Below, one piece after another: positions 1 to 50,160 of a DNA stretch of 64,000 bases. The stretch lies in NCBI GenBank assembly GCA_964016885.1, contig OZ024742.1, positions 369,272,001 through 369,336,000 on the forward strand, read 5' to 3'. Each line of letters starts with the position of its first letter. Position 1 is the stretch's first letter. Source of the DNA: Eledone cirrhosa (Eukaryota). The position numbers were made by a program, and so were the translations under genes. Under the pieces are notes generated by a model, which was given only the letters and a program-made list of their open reading frames with translations, made no database searches and was not told the DNA's origin.

Positions 1-3000
1 TTAAGTTGTCTGATCTCCAGCTTCAGATGTCTGCTGTCCAGTTTCGGTTGTCTGGTGACCAGTTTAGTTTGTCTGATGTCCAGCTCAGTTTTCTCATCTC
101 CAGCCTCAGTTCGCTGATGTCCAGCTTCAGTTATCTGATGTCCAGCTCAGTAGACCGATCTCCAATTTCAGTTTTCTGGTGTCCAGTTTAGGTAGGCTGA
201 TGTCCAGCTCAGTTGTCTAATCTCCAGCTTCAGTTCTCTGATGTCCAGCTTCAGTTGTCTGATGTCCAGCTTCAGTTGTCTAATGTCAAGTTTAAGTTAT
301 CTGATCTCCAGCTTCATTTGTCTGATGTCCAGTTTCAGTTGTCTGATGTCCAGTTTAGGTTGTCCGATGTTCAGCTTCAGTTCTCTGATGTCCAGCTTCA
401 GTTGTCTGATCTCCAGCTTCAGTTGTCTGCTGTCCTGCTTCTGTTGTCTGATGTCCAGCTTCAGTTGTCTGATCTTCAATTTTAGTTGTCTGATGTCCAG
501 TTTAGGTTGTCTGTTGTACAGTTTAGGTTGTCTGATGACCAGCTTCAGTTGTCTGATCTCCAGTTTCAGTTGTCTGCTGTCCAGTTTAGGTTGTCTGATG
601 TCCAGCTCAATTTTCTGTTCTCCACCTTCAGTTGTCTGATGTCCAGTTTAGGTTGTCTGATGTCCAGCTCAGTTGTGTAATCTCCAGGTTCAGTTGTCTG
701 TTTTCCAGCTTCAGATATCTGATCTCCAGCTTCAGTTGTCTGCTGTCCAGCTCCAGATATCTGATGTCCAGTTTAGGTTGTCTGATGTACAGTTTAGGTT
801 GTCTGATGTCCAGTTTAGGTTGTCTGATGTCCAGCTTCAGTTGTCTGATTTCCAGCTTCAGTTGTCTGTTGTCCAGTTTATGTTTTTTGATGTCCAGCTT
901 CAGTTGTCTGATGTCCAGCTTCAGTTGTCTGATGTCCAGCTTCAGTTGTCTGATCTCCAGCTTCAGTTGTCTGATTTCCAGCTTCAGTTGTCTGATGTCC
1001 AGTTTAGGTTGTCTGATCTCCCGTTTAGGTTGTCTGATGTCCAGCCTCAGTTGTCTGCTGTCCAGCTTCAGTTGTCTAATGTCCAGTTTAAGTTGTCTGC
1101 TGTCCAGCTTCAGTTGTCTGATCTCCAGCTTCAGTTGTCTGCTGTCCAGCTTCAGTTGTCTGATGTCCAGTTTAGGTTGTCTGATGTACAATTTAGGTTG
1201 TGTGATGACCAGCTTCAGTTGTCTGATATCCAGCTCAGTTGTCTGATCTCCAGTTTCAGTTGTCTGGTATCCAGTTAAGATATTCGGATGTCCAGCTCAG
1301 TTTTCTGATGTCCAGCTCAGTTGTCTGATCTCTAGTTTCGGTTGTCTGGTCTCCATCTTTAGTTGTCTGATGTCCAGTTTAACTTGTCTGATGTCCAGCT
1401 ACCGTTGTCTGATGTCCAGCGTCAGCTGTGTGATGTCCAGATTAGGTTGTCTGCTGTCCAGCTTCAAATGTCTGATATCCCCCTTCAGTTGTCTGATCTC
1501 CAGCTTCAGTTGTCTGCTGTCCAGCTTCAGTTGTCTGATGTCCATTTTAGGTTGTCTGATGTCCAGCTTCAGTTGAATGATGTCCAGCTTCAGTTGTCTG
1601 ATGTCCAGCTTCAGTTGTCTAATGTACAGCTCAGTTGTCTGATCTCCAGGTTCAGATTCGGATGTCCAGATTAGGTTGTCTGATGTCCATCTTCAGTTGT
1701 CTGATCTCCAGCTTAAGTTGTCTGTGATCTCCAGCTTCAGATGTCTGCTGTCCAGTTTCGGTTGTCTGGTGACCAGTTTAGTTTGTCTGATGTCCAGCTC
1801 AGTTTTCTCATCTGCAGCCTCAGTTCGCTGATGTCCAGCTTCAGTTATCTAATGTCCAGCTCAGTAGCCCGATCTCCAATTTCAGTTTTCTGGTGTCCAG
1901 TTTAGGTAGTCTGATGTCCAGCTCAGTTGTCTAATCCCCAGCTTCAGTTCTCTGATGTCCAGCTTCAGTTGTCTATTGTCCAGTTTATGTTGTTTGATGT
2001 CCAGCTTCAGTTGTCTGATGTCCAGTTTCAGTTGTCTGATGTCCAGTTTAGGTTGTCCGATGTTCAGCTTCAGTTGTCTGATGTCCAGCTTTAGTTGTCT
2101 GATCTCCAGCGTCAGTTGTCTGCTGTCCTGCTTCTGTTGTCTGATGTCCAGCTTCAGTTGTCTGATCTCCAATTTTAGTTGTCTGATGTCCAGTTTAGGT
2201 TGTCTGTTGTACAGTTTAGTTTGTCTGATGACCAGCTCAGTTGTCTGATCTCCAGTTTCAGTTGTCTGCTGTCCAGTTTAGGTTGTCTGATGTCCAGCTC
2301 AATTGTCTGTTCTCCACCTTCAGTTGTCTGATGTCCAGTTTAGGTTGTCTGATGTCCAGCTCAGTTGTGTAATCTCCAGGTTCAGTTGTCTGTTTTCCAG
2401 CCTCAGATGTCTGATCTCCAGCTTCAGTTGTCTGCTGTCCAGCTCCAGATGTCTGATGTCCAGCTTCAGTTGTCTGATGTCCAGTTTAGGTTGTCTAATC
2501 TCCAGCTTCAGTTGTCTGATTCCAGTTTAGGTTGTCTGGTATCCAGTTAAGGTTGTCTGATGTCCAGCTCAGTTGTCTGATCTCCAGCTTCAGTTGTCTG
2601 ATGTCCAGCTTCAGTTGTCTGATGTCCAGCTCAGCTGTCTGATCTCCATCTTTAGTTGTCTGACGTCCAGTTTAGGTTGTCTGATGTCCAGCTTCCGTTG
2701 TCTGATGTCAAGTTTAGGTTCTCTGATGTTCAGCTTCAGTTGTTTGATGTTCAGCTTCAGTTGTCAGATCTCCAACTTAAGTTGTCTGATGTCCAGCTTC
2801 AGTTGTCTGATGTCCAGCTTCGGTTGTCTGATGTCCAGCTCAGTACTCTGATCTCCAATTTCAGTTGTCTGGTGTCCAGTTTAGGTTGTCTGATGTCCAG
2901 CTCAGTTGTCTGATCTCCAGCTTCAGTTGTCTGATGTCCAGTTTAGGTTGTCTGATGTCCAGCTCAGTTGTCTAATCTCCAGTTTCAGTTTTCTGATGTC

Positions 3001-6000
3001 CAGCTTCAGTTGTCTGATGTCCAGTTTAGGTTGTCTGATCTCCATCTTGTCTGACGTCCAGTTTAGGTTGTCTGATGTCCAGCTTCCGTTGTCTGATGTC
3101 CAGCTTCAGTTGTGTGATGTCCAGTTTAGGTTGTCTGCTGTCCAGCTTCAAATGTCTGATGTCCAGCTTCAGTTGTCTGATCTCCAGCTTCAGTTGTCTG
3201 CTGTCCAACTTCAGTTGTCTGATGTCCCGTTTAGGTTGTCTGATGTCCAGCTTCAGTTGTCTGATGTCCAGCTCAGTTTTCTGATCTCCAGCTTCAGTTG
3301 TCTGATGTCCAGCTCAGTTGTCTGATCTCCAGCTTCAGTTGTCTGCTGTCCAGCTTCAGTTGTCTGATCTCCAGCTTCAGTTGTCTGCTGTCCAGCTTCA
3401 GTTGTCTGATTTCCAGCTTCAGTTGTCTGATGTCCAGCTCAGTTGTCTGATCTCCAGCTTCAGTCGTCTGATGTCCAGTTTAGGTTGTCTAATCTCCAGC
3501 TTCAGTTGTCTGATTCCAGTTTAGGTTGTCTGGTATCCAGTTAAGGTTGTCTGATGTCCAGCTCAGTTGTCTGATCTCCAGCTTCAGTTGTCTGATGTCC
3601 AGCTTCAGTTGTCTGATCTCCAGCTTCAGTTGTCTGCTGTCCAGCTTCAGTTGTCTGATGTCCAGCTTCAGTTGTCTGATGTCCAGCTTCAGTTGTCTGA
3701 TCTCAAGCTTCAGTTGTCAGATTTCCAGCTTCAGTTGTCTGATGTCCAGTTTAGGTTGTCTGATCTCCCGTTTAGGTTGTCTGATGTCCAGCCTCAGTTG
3801 TCTAATGTCCAGTTTAGGTTGTCTGATAACCAGCTTCAGTTGTCTGATCTCCAGCTTCAGTTGTCTGCTGTCCAGCTTCAGTTGTCTGATCTCCAGCTTC
3901 AGTTGTCTGCTGTCCAGCTTCAGTTGTCTAATGTCCAGTTTAGGTTGTCTGATAACCAGCTTCAGTTGTCTGATCTCCAGCTTCAGTTGTCTGCTGTCCA
4001 GCTTCAGTTGTCTGATGTCCAGTTTAGGTTGTCTGATGTACAATTTAGGTTGTCTGATGACCAGCTTCAGTTGTCTGATATCCAGCTCAGTTGTCTGATC
4101 TCCAGTTTCGGTTGTCTGGTCTCCATCTTTAGTTGTCTGATGTCCAGTTTAATTTGTCTGATGTTCAGCTTCCGTTGTCTGCTGTCCAGCGTCAGCTGTG
4201 TGATGTCCAGTTTAGGTTGTCTGCTGTCCAGCTTCAAATGTCTGATGTCCACCTTCAGTTATCTGATCTCCAGCTTCAGTTGTCTGCTGTAGAGCTTCAG
4301 TTGTCTGATCTCCAGCTTCAGTTGTCTGCTGTCCAGCTTCAGTTGTCTGATGTTCATTTTAGGTTGTCTGATGTCCAGCTTCAGTTGAATGATGTCCAGC
4401 TTCAGTTGCCTGATGTCCAGCTTCAGTTGTCTAATGTACAGCTCAGTTGTCTGATCTCCAGGTTCAGATTCGGATGTCCAGATTAGGTTGTCTGATGTCC
4501 ATCTTCAGTTGTCTGATCTCCAGCTTAAGTTGTCTGATGTCCAGCTTCAGATGTCTGGTGTCCAGTTTCGGTTGTCTGGTGACCAGTTTAGTTTGTCTGA
4601 TGTCCAGCTCAGTTTTCTCATCTCCAGCCTCAGTTCGCTGATGTCCAGCTTCAGTTATCTGATGACCAGCTCAGTAGCCCCATCTCCAATTTCAGTTTTC
4701 TGGTGTCCAGTTTAGGTAGTCTGATGTCCTGCTCAGTTGTCTAATCTCCAGCTTCATCTCTCTGATGTCCAGCTTCAGTTGTCTGATGTCAAGTTTAAGT
4801 TGTCTGATCTCCAGCTTCAGTTGTCTGATGTCCAGTTTCAGTTGTCTGATGTCCAGTTTAGGTTGTCCGATGTTCAGCTTCAGTTGTCTGATGTCCAGCT
4901 TCAGTTGTCTGATCTCCAGCTTCAGTTGTCTGCTGTCCTGCTTCTGTTGTCTGATGTCCAGCTTCAGTTGTCTGATCTCCAATTTTAGTTGTCTGATGTC
5001 CAGTTTAGGTTGTCTGTTGTACAGTTTAGGTTGTCTGATGACCAGCTTCAGTTGTCTGATGTCCAGCTCAGTTGTCTGGTCTCCAGTTTCAGTTGTCTGC
5101 TGTCTAGTTTAAGTTGTCTGATGTCCAGCTCAATTGTCTGTTCTCCACCTTCAGTTGTCTGATGTCCAGTTTAGGTTGTCTGATGTCCAGCTCAGTTGTG
5201 TAATCTCCAGGTTCAGTTGTCTGTTTTCCAGCTTCAGATGTCTGATCTCCAGCTTCAGTTGTCTGCTGTCCAGCTCCAGATGTCTGATGTCCAGTTTAGG
5301 TTGTCTGATGTACAGTTTAGGTTGTCTGATGTCCAGTTTAGGTTGTCTGATGTCCAGCTTCAGTTGTCTGATTTCCAGCTTCAGTTGTCTGTTGTCCAGT
5401 TTAGGTTGTTTGATGTCCAGCTTCAGTTGTCTGATGTCCAGGTTCAGTTGTCTGATCTCCATCTTCAGTTGTCTGATGTCCAGTTTAGGTTGTCTTATGT
5501 CCAGCTCAGTTGTCTAATCTCCAGTTTCAGTTTTCTGATGTCCAGCTTCAGTTGTCTGATGTCCAGTTTAGGTTGTCTGATCTCCATCTTTAGTTGTCTC
5601 TATGTCCAGTTTAGGGTGTCTGATGTCCAACTTCGGTTGTCTGCTGTCCAGCTCCAGATGTCTGATGTCCAGTTTAGGTTGTCTGATGTACAGTTTAGGT
5701 TGTCTGATGGCCAGTTTAGGTTGTCTGATGTCCAGCTTCAGTTGTCTGATTTCCAGCTTCAGTTGTCTGTTGTCCAGTTTAGGTTATTTGATGTCCAGCT
5801 TCAGTTGTCTGATGTCCAGGTTCAGTTGTCTGATCTCCATCTTCAGTTGTCTGATGTCCAGTTTTGGTTGTCTTATGTCCAGCTCAGTTTTCTCATCTCC
5901 AGCTTCAGTTCGCTGATGTCCAGCTTCAGTTGTCTGATGTCCAGTTTAGTTTGTCTAATGTCCAGTTTATGTTGTCTGATGTTAAGCTTCAGTTGTCTGA

Positions 6001-7260
6001 TGTCCAGCTCAGTAGTCTGATCTCCAATTTCAGTTGTCTGGTGTCCAGTTTAGGTTGTCTGATGTCCAGCTCAGTTGTCTGATGTCCAGCTTCAGTTGTC
6101 TGATGTCCAGTTTAGGTTGTCTGATGTCCAGCTTCAGTAGTCTGATCTCCAGATTCAGTTGTCTGCTGTCCAGCTTCAGTTGTTTGATGTCCAGTTTAGG
6201 TTGTCTGATGTCCCGTTTAGGTTATCTGATGTCCAGCTTCAGTTGTCTGATGTCCAGCACAGTTGTCTGATCTCTAGCTTATTGTCTGATGTCCAGTTCA
6301 GTTGTCTGATCTCCAGCTTCAGTTGTCTGATGTCCAGTTTAGGTTGCCTAATGTCCAGCTTCAGTTGTCTGATGTCCAGCTTCAGTTGTCTGATGTCCAG
6401 CTTCAGTTGTCTGATGTCCAGCATCAGTTGTCAGATCTCCAGCTTCATTTGACTAATGTCCAGTTTAGTTTGTCTAATGTACAGTTTAGGTTGTCTGATG
6501 TCCAGCTTCAGTTGTCTGATGTCTAGCTTCAGTTGTCTGATGTCCAGCTCAGTAGTCTGATCTCCAATTTCAGTTGTCTGATGTCCAGTTTAGGTTGTCT
6601 GATTTCCAGCTTCAGTTGTCTGATGTCCAGCTTCAGTTGTCTGATCTCCAGCTTCAGTTGTCTGATGTCCAGCTTCAGTTGTCTGATGTCCTGCTTCAGT
6701 TGTCTGATGTCCAGCTTCAGTTGTCTGATCTCCAGCTTCATTTGTCTGCTGTCCAGCTTCAGTTGTCTGATGTCCAGCTTCAGTCGTCTGATGTCCAGTT
6801 TAGGTTGTCTGATATCCAGCTCAGGCGTCTGATCTCCAATTTCAGTTTTCTGGTGTCCAGTTTAGGTTGTCTGATGTCCAGTTTAGGTTGTCTGATGTCC
6901 AGTTCAGTTCTCTGATGTCCAGCTCAGTTGTCTGATCTCCAGCTTGTTGTCTGATGTCCAATTCAGGTTGTCTGATCTCCAGCTTCAGTTTTCTGATGTC
7001 CAGTTTAGGTTGTCTGATGTTCAGGTTCAGTTGTCTGATATCCAGCTTCAGTTGTCTGATGTCCAGTTTATGTTGTCTGATGTCGAGTTTCAGTCTTCTG
7101 ATGTCCACTTTAGGTGGTCTGATGTGCCGCTTCAGTTGTCTGATGTCCAGCTTCACTTGTCTGATTTCCAGTTTAGTTTGTCTGATGTCCAGCTTCAGTT
7201 GTCTGATCTCCAGCTTCGGTTGTCTGATGTCCAGCTTCAGTTGTCTGATGTTCAGTTTCT
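1..7260. repeat. 21-bp tandem satellite, consensus ~GTTGTCTGATGTCCAGCTTCA, with 20-bp (..CAGCTCA) and ..CAGTTTAG variants
   Basis: Continuous head-to-tail monomers; ORF track gives 7-aa periodic translations (LSDVQLQ / CLMSSFS / LKLDIRQ); runs off the left edge of the window. Confidence 0.97.
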
Positions 7261-45544: not shown

Positions 45545-45718
45545 ACATACACATACACATACACATACATATATAAAACATACATACATATACACATATA
45601 TATATATACATACATGTACTACATACATATATAAATACATACACACACATACATACATACATACATACATACATACATACATACATACATACATACATAC
45701 ATACATACATACATACAT
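45545..45718. repeat. (TACA)n microsatellite, first of several TACA tracts spanning 45545-50727
   Basis: Directly visible; further tracts at ~46188-46331, 46616-46653, 48083-48161, 48769-48869, 49477-49597, 50161-50420, 50704-50727. Confidence 0.95.
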
Positions 45719-46184
45719 GGTGGCTGCCAACTCGTTTTCGAGTACGGCCACTACTTTATATCCATGTAGGAGAACTCCTACCGAACGCTGAACGAGTGTA
45801 ACTTTTTAGTCCAGCCAGCGACTTGAAAACTCTGGTACAAACACTACACTTGTGACAATTATTGACACATAGTGCTGGGCCCATGGTTCCATGTGACGAC
45901 AAGTGCAGAGAGATCTCCAGATATAAAGCAATGCCTGGGCCGTGAAGCTTTTATAGTGAGCAAAGGCACAGCACAAAGCCAGTCCTACTCTCTTAACCAA
46001 GATGATATTTACCAAAAAGAAGAACAAGTCAACATCATTGGATACCATCAGGGTTGCAGGTGTTATATCAGAGTTTTCCTTCTCCTAGAATTCTGCCTTG
46101 ACAAAAGCTAAGGGGTCATCTCTCCTGGTGATTTTGGATGGCCATTGACTCTTAAGAGCTCCTTTGGCCTTTGACAGGTTTTTT

Positions 46185-46187
<3 letters not shown>
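45719..46187 (-). mobile_element. Non-coding ~607-bp retroelement, copy 1 (5'-truncated)
   Basis: Near-identical to 48162-48768 but lacks ~140 bp at the right end; flanked by (TACA)n on both sides. Confidence 0.75.
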
Positions 46188-46616: not shown

Positions 46617-46653
46617 ACATACATACATACATATATACATACATAGATACATA

Positions 46654-48082
46654 AACAGTGGCTCATAATGTGTTTGCTGTGCCTGTCATAACACCAACGT
46701 TTGGAATACTCAATTGGACGATAGACGAAATCCGAGCAGTTGATGTTGGAACTTGAGAAATACTGAACAACACCGGAAACTTCCACATCAACAGTGACAT
46801 AGACCACCTTTACTTGAAACATAAGCAGGGAGGCAGAGGACTAACATCAGTCCAGACAACATTTGAATGTCGCATCATATCTCTCCGACAACATCTACGA
46901 ACCTCGAAGCGTAGGAGCCCGTTTCTCGAGCAATTCTATCTGCATGAAACAGATAAGATCATGAGAGTTGGGAAGGAACTCCTTGAGAGATATTCCCTGT
47001 GTGATAATCAAAAACTCACACCCAGGGATGTCGCTCAGCAGTATCACAGTGAATCCATGAATGAAAAACTGCATGCCTATCAGCAAAAAATCATGCATGG
47101 ATATGTTGCCAGGAAACTCCAGAGTGAGAGTAATATAGATAAGGAAAGTAGTCTATCTTGGACCAACAACCTCTATATTGGCTCCCACTTTGAAGGATAC
47201 GCTTTTGCAATCCAGGAACAGGAGACTAGCACGAAATACCTGATTCACAAAAGAGATAGGGTTGCAGGCAAAACACCTAGATGTGATAACAAGTGCAGAC
47301 TCTGCAGAACTAACATCGAGGATATCACCCATGTCATCAGCAGCTGTCCAAAGATGTCATCGCGGTACTATCTACCTATGAGGCATGATATAGTGGCCAA
47401 AACACTGTACAATGCAGTTCGTAAAAAGGATAGCCCCGATAATAAACACATTAAAAGCTACAACAATATGGAAGACATCCATGTACATAATATGAAAGAG
47501 TACTGGTGGAATGTTCCAGTAAAAAACCCAATAAAATGAAGGCATAACAGACCAGATATTATGATATGGGACAGGGAGAAGAAAACATGCACAGTAGTGG
47601 AAATTAGTTGCCCAGCAGATGCCAATATAATATCAAAGATTAGTGAAAAGGAGAATATTTATGCAGAACTGATGAGAAATCTGCAGATACTCCACCCTGA
47701 TTACACCTTCAGATTTATGCCTGTGATTATTGGGGCACTGGGGTATGTTAGTAACTGCCTCAATACAAATCTTGAGAAGCTAGGCTTCACAGGAACAGAA
47801 AGAACACAACTACTTAGGAAATTACAAGTACAATTCATTAATGGAACAGTAAAAATTTGTAAAACATTCCAAACATTTTGCATCTAATAACTGCATATAC
47901 ACATGTACTGAAAACATCCACATCCACACATACAATAACATCCATATCTACACATGCATGCATACATACATATCTACCTAGTTGATGTTGTGTAAATTCC
48001 AATGAGAGAGTCTTGTGTCTATGTTAGAAACCGACTCTCTCTCTATTGGGAAAAAATTTGTGAAATTATAAAACCAGAAGAA
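46654..48082 (+). mobile_element. 5'-truncated R4/Dong-like non-LTR retrotransposon (RT C-terminal region, CCHC knuckle, restriction-like endonuclease), decayed
   Basis: AHNVFAVPVITPTFGILNWT..LYLKHKQGGRGL; CRLCRTNIEDITHVISSC; RHD; RHNRPDIMIWD..VVEISCP..KEN.Y; PVIIGALG; in-frame stops near 46755 and at 47537-47539; (TACA)n on both flanks. Confidence 0.9.
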
Positions 48083-48161
48083 CATACATACATACATACA
48101 TACATACATACATACATACATACATACATACATACATACATACATACATACATACATACAT

Positions 48162-48768
48162 GGTGGCTGCCAACTCGTTTTCGAGTACGGCCACTACTTT
48201 ATATCCATGTAGGAGAACCCCTACCGATGCGCTGAACGAGTGTGACTTTTTAGTCCAGCCAGCGACTTGAAAACTCTGGTACAAACACACACTTGTGACA
48301 ATTATTGACACATAGTGCTGGGCCCATGGTTCCATGTGACGACAAGTGCAGAGAGATCTCCAGATATAAAGCAATGCCTGGGCCGTGAAGCTTTTATAGT
48401 GAGCAAAGGCACAGCACAAAGCCAGTCCCACTCTCTTAACCAAGATGATATTTACCAAAAAGAAGAACAAGTCAACATCATTGGATACTACCAGGGTTGC
48501 AGGTGTTATATCAGAGTTTTCCTTCTCCTAGAATTCTGCCTTGACAAAGGCTAAGGGGGTCATCTCTCCCGGTGATTTTGGATGGCCATTGACTCTTAAG
48601 AGCTCCTTTGCCCTTTGACAGGTTTTGTTTTTAGTCCTGCAGGATGTCCAAAGTCACCCTCCTCACCAAGAATCCTTGGTGGGGTTGCTAGTTTAGTCGC
48701 CAATGACCCAACCATGGGACAGGTTGTACTGGGATACATGTTACCAGTAGCACCAACTAGTGACCTGA
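48162..48768 (-). mobile_element. Non-coding ~607-bp retroelement, copy 2 (longest form)
   Basis: GGTGGCTGCCAACTCG...TGACCTGA on + strand, bounded by (TACA)n; no credible ORF. Confidence 0.75.
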
Positions 48769-48869
48769 CATACATACATATATATACATACATACATACA
48801 TACATACATACATACATACATGCATACATACATATATATATACGTATATATATACATACATACATACAT

Positions 48870-49476
48870 GGTGGCTGCCAACTCGTTTTCGAGTACGGCC
48901 ACTACTTTATATCCATGTAGGAGAACCCCTACTGATGCGCTGAACGAGTGTGACTTTTTAGTCCAGCCAGCGACTTGAAAGCTCTGGTACAAACACTACA
49001 CTTGTGACAATTATTGACACATAGTGCTGGGCCCATGGTACCATGTGACGACAAATGCAGAGAGATCTCCAGATATAAAGCAATGCCTGTGCCGTGAAGC
49101 TTTTATAGTGAGCAAAGGCACTGCACAAAGCCAGTCCCACTCTCTTAACCAAGATGATATTTACCAAAAAGAAGAACAAGTCAACATCATTGGATACCAT
49201 CAGGGTTGCAGGTGTTATATCAGAGTTTTCCTTCTCCTAGAATTCTGCCTTGACAAAGGCTAAGGGGTCATCTCTCCCGGTGATTTTGGATGGCCATTGA
49301 TTCTTAAGAGCTCCTTTGCCTTTTGACAGGTTTTGTTTTTAGTCCTGCAGGATGTCCAAAGTCACCCTCCTCACCAAGAAACCTTGGTGGGGTTGCCAGT
49401 TTAGTCGCCAACGACCCGACCATGGGACAGGTTGTACTGGAATACATGTTACCAGTAGCACCAACTGGTGACCTGA
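48870..49476 (-). mobile_element. Non-coding ~607-bp retroelement, copy 3 (longest form)
   Basis: Same two ends as copy 2 with scattered substitutions; bounded by (TACA)n. Confidence 0.75.
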
Positions 49477-49597
49477 CATAGATACATATACATATATATA
49501 CATACATATACATACATACATATACATATATATACATACATACATATACACATATATACATACATACATACATATATATACATACATACATACATAT

Positions 49598-50159
49598 GGT
49601 GGCTGCCAACTCGTTTTCGAGTACGGCCACTACTTTATATCCATGTAGGAGAACCCCTACCGAAGCGCTGAACGAGTGTGACTTTTTAGTCCAGCCAGCG
49701 ACTTGAAAACTCTGGTACAAACACTACACTTGTGACAATTATTGACACATAGTGCTGGGGCCATGGTACCATGTGAGGACAAGTGCAGAGAGATCTCCAG
49801 ATATAAAGCAATGCCTGTGCCGTGAAGCTTTTATAGTGAGCAAAGGCACTGCACAAAGCCAGTCCCACTCTCTTAACCAAGATGATATTTACCAAAAAGA
49901 AGAACAAGTCAACATCATTGGATACCATCAGGGTTGCAGGTGTTATATCAGAGTTTTCCTTCTCCTAGAATTCTGCCTTGACAAAGGCTAAGGGGTCATC
50001 TCTCCCGGTGATTCTGGATGGCCATTGACTCTTAAGAGCTCCTTTGCCCTTTGACAGGTTTTGTTTTTAGTCCTGCAGGATGTCCAAAGTCACCCTCCTC
50101 ACCAAGAAACCTTGGTGGGGTTGCCAGTTTAGTCGCCAACGACCCGACCATGAGACAGG

Positions 50160-50160
<1 letters not shown>
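49598..50160 (-). mobile_element. Non-coding ~607-bp retroelement, copy 4 (5'-truncated by ~45 bp)
   Basis: Same left end as the other copies; right end stops at CATGAGACAGGT, followed by (ACAT)n. Confidence 0.75.

Follow-up and report, generated by a model that had tools for sequence, protein, structure and literature searches.

Four minus-strand copies of a 610-nt element, two of them 5'-truncated (copies 1 and 4), lie clustered in the window, the 64,000-nt stretch of DNA analysed here, and raise the question of what kind of RNA begins at the first base of this element and what it may do there. The copies and the parts of the element that bear on its origin are the following, with element numbering that takes G1 as position 49477 of the minus strand throughout:

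48868..49477, minus strand: copy 3, the non-autonomous element at its full 610 nt, with an (ATGT)n/(AT)n tail behind it
48160..48769, minus strand: copy 2, full length, 97% identical to copy 3, with its core at 48769-48711
49596..50160, minus strand: copy 4, 5'-truncated, without nt 1-45 and hence with most of the core gone
45717..46187, minus strand: copy 1, 5'-truncated, its first base being nt 139
49203..49477, minus strand: the 5' 275 nt, shared at 95%–97% identity with the 5' end of autonomous RTE copies (family X)
48935..49006, minus strand: relic of the C2H2 zinc-finger end of an RTE-type ORF (zf-C2H2 at E 9e-5, which falls slightly short of the curated threshold)

Exact matches to one 29-mer of the element number 14,487 in the 3.0-Gb genome. 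The element is a bipartite, non-autonomous RTE retroposon, since its first 275 nt match the 5' end of the autonomous APE-RT family X, standing upstream of the APE-RT ORF in 6 of 30 loci, and its 3' end consists of the relic C2H2 coding stretch and a microsatellite tail. Searches for the autonomous partner via RVT_1, DUF6451 and the relic peptide found none, and family X was reached via the endonuclease of L255, a relative introduced below; no donor of the 3' end was present among the LINE loci compared. A tRNA head was looked for on the element and none was found, and a bacterial promoter scan, not relevant to the element, was empty. Elsewhere, large 21-bp and 40-bp tandem arrays (4-7259 and 7577-40879) occupy most of the window, and a decayed ORF fragment on the plus strand (46650-48080), flanked by element copies, carries a CCHC-like stretch and a PD-(D/E)-like motif; we take it to resemble the C-terminus of a restriction-like-endonuclease LINE.

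The 5' end of the element is precise. The first-pass annotation had held that copies 2 and 3 start at the same base, and the shared start is real but is located 3–4 nt upstream of the first stem drawn there. The true first base is G49477: a G stands at this position in all 30 best genomic matches though the query began one base later, and of 73 copies collected by means of an anchor further downstream, from the first 70 sites of a single contig, 46 begin exactly at G49477, with at most three copies for any other start.

From this base onward, nt 1-59 match, in sequence and in base-pairing pattern, the exoribonuclease-resistant RNA (xrRNA) of flavivirus subclass 1a. The fold that fits belongs to a class absent from the candidates first proposed, and the predicted parts are:

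49419..49477, minus strand: xrRNA-like core of copy 3, nt 1-59, from the Rfam RF01415 alignment, the MFE fold and comparison with viral sequences and related families
49395..49420, minus strand: predicted second domain, an H-type pseudoknot (58-61/71-74, 66-70/79-83), with one-sided pair-preserving changes across families

In the core, G1-U2 would form the leader of the knot, followed by P1 (3-7/46-50), the P2 hairpin (8-19), the junction nucleotide C20, P3 (21-26/38-43) with its loop L3 (27-37), J3/1 (C44-A45) and a predicted pseudoknot, PK2 (30-33/54-57). RF01415 (Flavivirus 3'UTR stem loop IV) ranks first of 4,227 Rfam families on the 106-nt head, with 26.4 bits (E 0.005; 0.096 on 2.1 kb), half of the gathering score of 54.5 bits, which the best match in the genome (29.6 bits) does not reach either; at the gathering score, Rfam yields zero matches on the window. 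The long L3 and the model's 3' stem, which finds no counterpart, account for the loss of score. Across the core, the alignment contains no broken pair, 18 of the 23 upper-case consensus letters are identical (hand count), and four of the five differences make up two compensatory C-G to U-A pair swaps. Genome-wide, RF01415 has three matches, all to family members, at E values of 6.6–9 and with 64 of 216,717 candidates scored.

The head is common to distant RTE lineages, since in L255, L276 and L257, the three true relatives among 34 hits of a metagenome scan, it is followed each time by an endonuclease frame, and the L255 endonuclease is only 29% identical to that of family B in the best segment. 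Families B (391 matches) and C (154 matches) were found from the loose ends of contigs; 5 of 19 extended family-B loci continue into ~4.3-kb RTEs, two of the five being near-duplicates. Against RF01415, L255 scores 20.2 bits. The other 31 metagenome hits of the core pattern are unrelated, as are all seven viral hits, while the retroposon-type pattern has no match in viral contigs and six in prokaryotic genomes, all unrelated by inspection, and the U-A variant of the core is absent from the viral contigs searched. One divergent sequencing-run contig (run X7), which keeps nt 18-81 with a different P2 region and for which two of nine differences were available, was left out of the covariation analysis. 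Over the seven family rows, 52 of 71 compared positions are invariant.

The 5' head also occurs in satellite-like tandem arrays (L228/L235 at G000:C2:220133500-220139500, and G000:C3:127739568-127740563), with units of 95–102 nt in family C and of 75 nt in family A, and a dispersed array at G000:C1:435870245-435892630 is made of a degenerate unit that resembles the head but has another P2 region. In L217 and other family C loci, approximately nt 140-165 bear a by-eye likeness to the 23-nt RTE-like piece of Ceph-SINEs given in PMC5786205, which may point to a cephalopod as host.

Members of subclass 1a resist Xrn1 without the help of protein, through a ring folded around the 5' end, and have a PK2 of 3–8 bp that joins L3 to the strand after P1. 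The features that define the subclass, including the single C between P2 and P3, are described in PMC8374639, PMC5760640 and PMC7749634; mosquito-borne xrRNAs have exclusively C-G junction pairs and a variable arm, P2 (PMC13161572). In the element, nt 1-50 have a three-way junction as MFE fold in all four family representatives, P1 and P3 are paired in all seven family rows, and C20, the single junction nucleotide between P2 and P3, is present in every row, as are G1 and C44, the complementary letters of PK1. The letters of the U.A-U triple (U2, A22 and U42) occur in six rows, L257, a single copy, having G22; the invariant set is accordingly G1, U2, C20, U42, C44 and A45, with A22 kept in six. 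The junction C-G pairs are replaced by U7-A46 and U21-A43. PK2 could form 4 bp in 7/7 rows with viral spacing, and 6 bp in family C and L257; its 4 bp are palindromic, a local and likewise invariant 4-bp hairpin (32-35/42-45) competes with it, and it has no two-sided change. The sequence of P2 varies, yet the hairpin is kept in families A, B and C, in L255 and in further head variants. Because P1, P3 and PK2 show no two-sided changes among 13 retroposon copies, the core being nearly invariant, the fold rests on its likeness to the viral family and on P2; the five two-sided pairs found overall were reached in 14 of 500 shuffles, a count that is not decisive for related sequences.

The geometry agrees with that of the viruses. 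Ten of eleven viral contig hits, all ten on 10.7–11.1-kb records, parse with a descriptor of the core, and their junction letters agree by construction of the pattern, while their spacing, only loosely constrained by it, agrees with the element: twice P3 plus L3 is 23 (21–23 in the viruses), the linker is 3 (2–3), and PK2 has 4 bp (4–7, in 8 of 10). The full descriptor, composed after the sequence had been seen, has three matches in 720,136 background bases, all of them relatives, but misses L257 (A22G) and, in family C, 23 of the 24 decayed copies; 12 of the 15 matches of a looser version without PK2 are due to chance. Folding z-scores range from -0.6 to -1.55, and those of two viral controls are -0.5 and -0.2. 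It could be argued from the sub-threshold Rfam score, the weak z-scores and the post hoc descriptor that the likeness is coincidental, and the head an ordinary conserved RTE 5' UTR with hairpins for translation or packaging. We regard this as very improbable: the match is fixed at one place, the first base of the element, it combines the 18 identical letters with the two pair swaps, and none of 4,000 shuffles passes the full descriptor. The head resembles a subclass-1a xrRNA and probably works like one. We do not file it as a member of that subclass, since its junction lacks the C-G pairs, its score stays below the Rfam threshold and its resistance is a prediction.

How this core relates to the structure first drawn for the region can now be specified. 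The structured 5' domain or processing element of the first-pass annotation stands, as a conserved region tied to the precise 5' end of an RTE-derived element, and the letters of its stems are found at their positions and can be drawn as pairs. Across families, TACTGG/CCAGTA, which is P3 of the xrRNA-like model, and CACCAAG/CTTGGTG persist, whereas the 7-bp stem opened by a G-U pair, GTCG/CGAC in the proposed register and TCC/GGA-CTAA do not; family C has neither the 7-bp stem nor the TCC/GGA-CTAA hairpin. The second persisting stem is located as follows:

49372..49389, minus strand: hairpin CACCAAG/CTTGGTG, compensated in family C, with other hairpins instead in L255 and L257

The stability of the 140-nt region is unremarkable (z of -1.15 and -0.81). 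The covariation that had been read from CCAGTT/AACTGG in copy 3 and CTAGTT/AACTAG in copy 2, that is C11T together with G81A, is a coincidence, the double change being no commoner than chance. Genome-wide, T11 occurs in 130 copies and A81 in 82 (all listed), and both in two, one of which is copy 2 itself, compared with ~1.7 doubles expected among ~6,150 eligible copies (31/73 of the sample times 14,487), so that P(>=2) is 0.52. Copy 2 has four private mutations, C11T, C60T, G66A and G81A, of which G66A breaks another of the stems originally drawn. The CCAGTT/AACTGG stem is itself broken by G13C, common to 6 of 34 family-A copies with its partner C79 unchanged, and has six of six pairs in family A and 0–3 of six in related families.

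The same annotation had favoured a ribozyme, HDV-like or twister, and this part of its proposal is not supported. HDV-like cores possess a conserved L3 with a U.G reverse wobble, and P1.1; in the head these positions vary freely. The U20.G25 equivalent fails in six of seven family rows, one P1.1 pair in three and P2 in three, and in L3, position 36 is A in six rows and position 37 takes all four bases across copies. No Rfam ribozyme family, the HDV and twister models included, matches at the gathering score or at E<=10. That the head is nevertheless a divergent ribozyme which cleaves itself just before G1, be it HDV-like or of a class not yet described, seems improbable to us. HDV-ordered motifs are drawable (G1.U56, a 4-bp P3, GG and CUAA), and on other RTEs of this genome the same position is occupied by HDV and twister heads; the fit, however, needs two 4-nt insertions, one of which separates P3 from P1', elements that must adjoin in the HDV model (PMC3774820), so that the 3' strand of the 7-bp P1 follows P3/L3 only after a 4-nt bulge. 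A cut at G1 would, moreover, leave no templated leader. The twister core is absent from the head, which has no twister match at E<=10, and the twister-like UCCC is a minority feature (4 of 34 copies). Fits to HDV, twister, hammerhead, pistol and hatchet were made by eye against the patterns of these classes, HDV alone being scored, and it failed.

Genuine HDV-type and twister-type heads are easily seen on other RTEs of this genome. On one RTE body, that of family X, 17 of 20 extended loci reach the junction, eight with the head described here (six sharing one junction and two another) and nine with an HDV head. From the repeated copies, either head appears to support retrotransposition, and the family-X tree does not settle which of the two came first. 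The HDV-like fold that heads family X is canonical (L320, L323, L324, L326, L335, L339, L344 and L345) and lies ~550 nt upstream of the endonuclease match, with P1 fully paired in five of six parsed copies, a 3-bp P3, a 7-nt L3, GG and P4; Rfam misses it in L326. A twister-type core stands at the 5' end of another RTE family (L333, L346 and L347), with a sub-threshold twister-P1 score of 23.3 bits in L346. A young RTE-like family with intact 1,111-aa ORFs and 98%–99% identity between copies (L348-L351) has no match to the element.

Copies of the element are often preceded by a few bases that are not part of the conserved head:

49478..49481, minus strand: leader position, 3–4 nt upstream of G1, usually ending TAT

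Upstream of G1, T, A and T occupy positions -3, -2 and -1 in 81, 77 and 86 of 92 copies, respectively, and a TT phase break falls at -6..-1 in 34 of 92, versus 4–8 further upstream (Fisher p 7e-6). Among 30 copies selected for having C/G at -7 and -6, 23 carry TAT at -3..-1, compared with 31 of 1,027 control sites (3%). Of 30 loci, seven allowed a target duplication to be called, and their gaps are 0, 1, 1, 3, 4, 4 and 6; in microsatellite flanks, calling succeeded in 15 of 92 copies, many of these calls being spurious. One autonomous copy is without a leader, and two HDV-headed copies likewise have 1–2 extra bases. In mosquito-borne xrRNAs, according to PMC5760640, Xrn1 halts 5–6 nt before P1, which would therefore leave 3–4 nt before G1. 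The leader length enriched in the DNA copies, 3–4 nt, equals what such a halt would leave, the target-duplication gaps being mixed. Frequently, the 5' end is duplicated over a short stretch, so that a partial head, TAT and a complete head follow one another (L290-L314, L392, L394, L396 and L416), which suggests template jumps onto RNA ends bearing the leader.

We consider it likely, with every step past the sequence match being one that we infer, that the xrRNA-like knot of nt 1-59 defines and protects the 5' end of the element by stalling a 5'-3' exonuclease. Element RNA would be made by read-through from transcription of the host or of an upstream copy, and the longer RNA would acquire a 5' monophosphate via decapping or cutting. 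XRN1 or XRN2 would then digest the flank and stop 3–4 nt before G1; there the 5' end would run through a ring that PK1, the U2.A22-U42 triple and PK2 close. An RTE protein, binding the 3' end in trans, would copy the trimmed RNA, short leader included, into AT/GT microsatellites. For other RTEs, HDV and twister ribozymes set the 5' end by catalysis; the knot would accomplish this passively.

A transcription start fixed 3–4 nt upstream of G1 would yield an identical leader, and the head might accordingly be an internal RNA polymerase II promoter with such a start, its fold, though real, only stabilising the RNA or binding the RTE protein and no exonuclease trimming taking place. The sharp start, the short, constant-looking leader and a near-invariant core without covariation, which fits sequence-level constraint, speak for a promoter, as does the precedent of L1Tc, whose first 77 nt are reported to be promoter and ribozyme at once (PMC3383444). 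However, a promoter does not predict the compensated P2, the viral junction letters or the spacing of PK2, and the leader bases differ between families and even between L255 and L276, which belong to the same family, with G1 onward kept. We judge the promoter to be unlikely, though less so than the ribozyme or coincidence.

A 2021 review states that no xrRNA had been characterised outside viruses and calls their occurrence in eukaryotic genomes an open question (PMC8374639). The literature searched, which left subscription journals and Repbase outside its coverage, did not describe a natural xrRNA in any retroelement, and the 5' heads could stand under another label in Repbase or in supplements of RTE and xrRNA papers. 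For the question of eukaryotic genomes, the head provides a concrete candidate of 60–90 nt with point predictions. We see an even balance for and against a broader reading, in which invertebrate RTEs use a working flavivirus-type xrRNA that is interchangeable with HDV and twister ribozymes and related by descent to the viral fold. Within this reading, the xrRNA was possibly captured when the reverse transcriptase of the element jumped onto subgenomic flaviviral RNA, or the retroelement head was possibly the source of the viral fold. Exchange of the xrRNA with a marine invertebrate host is conceivable, as a speculation, because putative xrRNAs are noted in marine flaviviruses, a squid virus included (PMC8128465). 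If the broader reading is true, a host genome carries an xrRNA in thousands of copies, exonuclease stalling joins promoters and ribozymes as a third way in which non-LTR elements define the LINE 5' end, the evolution of flavivirus 3' UTRs is linked to host retroelements, and host transcripts can give rise to stable decay products at thousands of loci in this genome.

Among known systems, the architecture of the element is like that of Bov-A and RTESINE (PMC5786205), which likewise join an RTE 5' end to an RTE 3' end, carry a microsatellite tail and are ORF-less; in contrast to these, the element has an xrRNA-like head, a 5' part that matches family X and a 3' part unmatched among the RTE families compared. 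As in Perere-3, whose 5' end carries twister variants (PMC8501958), a structured RNA heads an RTE-type element, and twisters of that kind occur on another RTE family of this genome; the head itself has no twister core. With the HDV-like ribozymes at the 5' ends of RTE, R2 and L1Tc (PMC3774820, PMC6765202, PMC4035085), it shares the position and, apparently, the role of setting where an RNA made by read-through begins, and an HDV head and this head alternate on one RTE body. Its topology differs, the HDV core tests fail, and it would act by halting a nuclease instead of cutting, so that the RNA would begin with a 5' monophosphate and a short leader rather than with a 5'-OH at G1. Unlike subclass 1a xrRNAs (RF01415), which lie in viral 3' UTRs, the head stands at the 5' end of a host retrotransposon; it has U-A for C-G at two junction pairs, a 4-bp palindromic PK2, a downstream domain that differs from the viral P4, and a resistance that is predicted only. 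With these same xrRNAs (PMC8374639, PMC5760640), however, it shares a GU followed by a 5-bp P1, a three-way junction with a single C between P2 and P3, an A-U second P3 pair, a J3/1 C placed to pair with G1, a variable P2 and, with the same spacing, a predicted pseudoknot from L3 to the downstream sequence.
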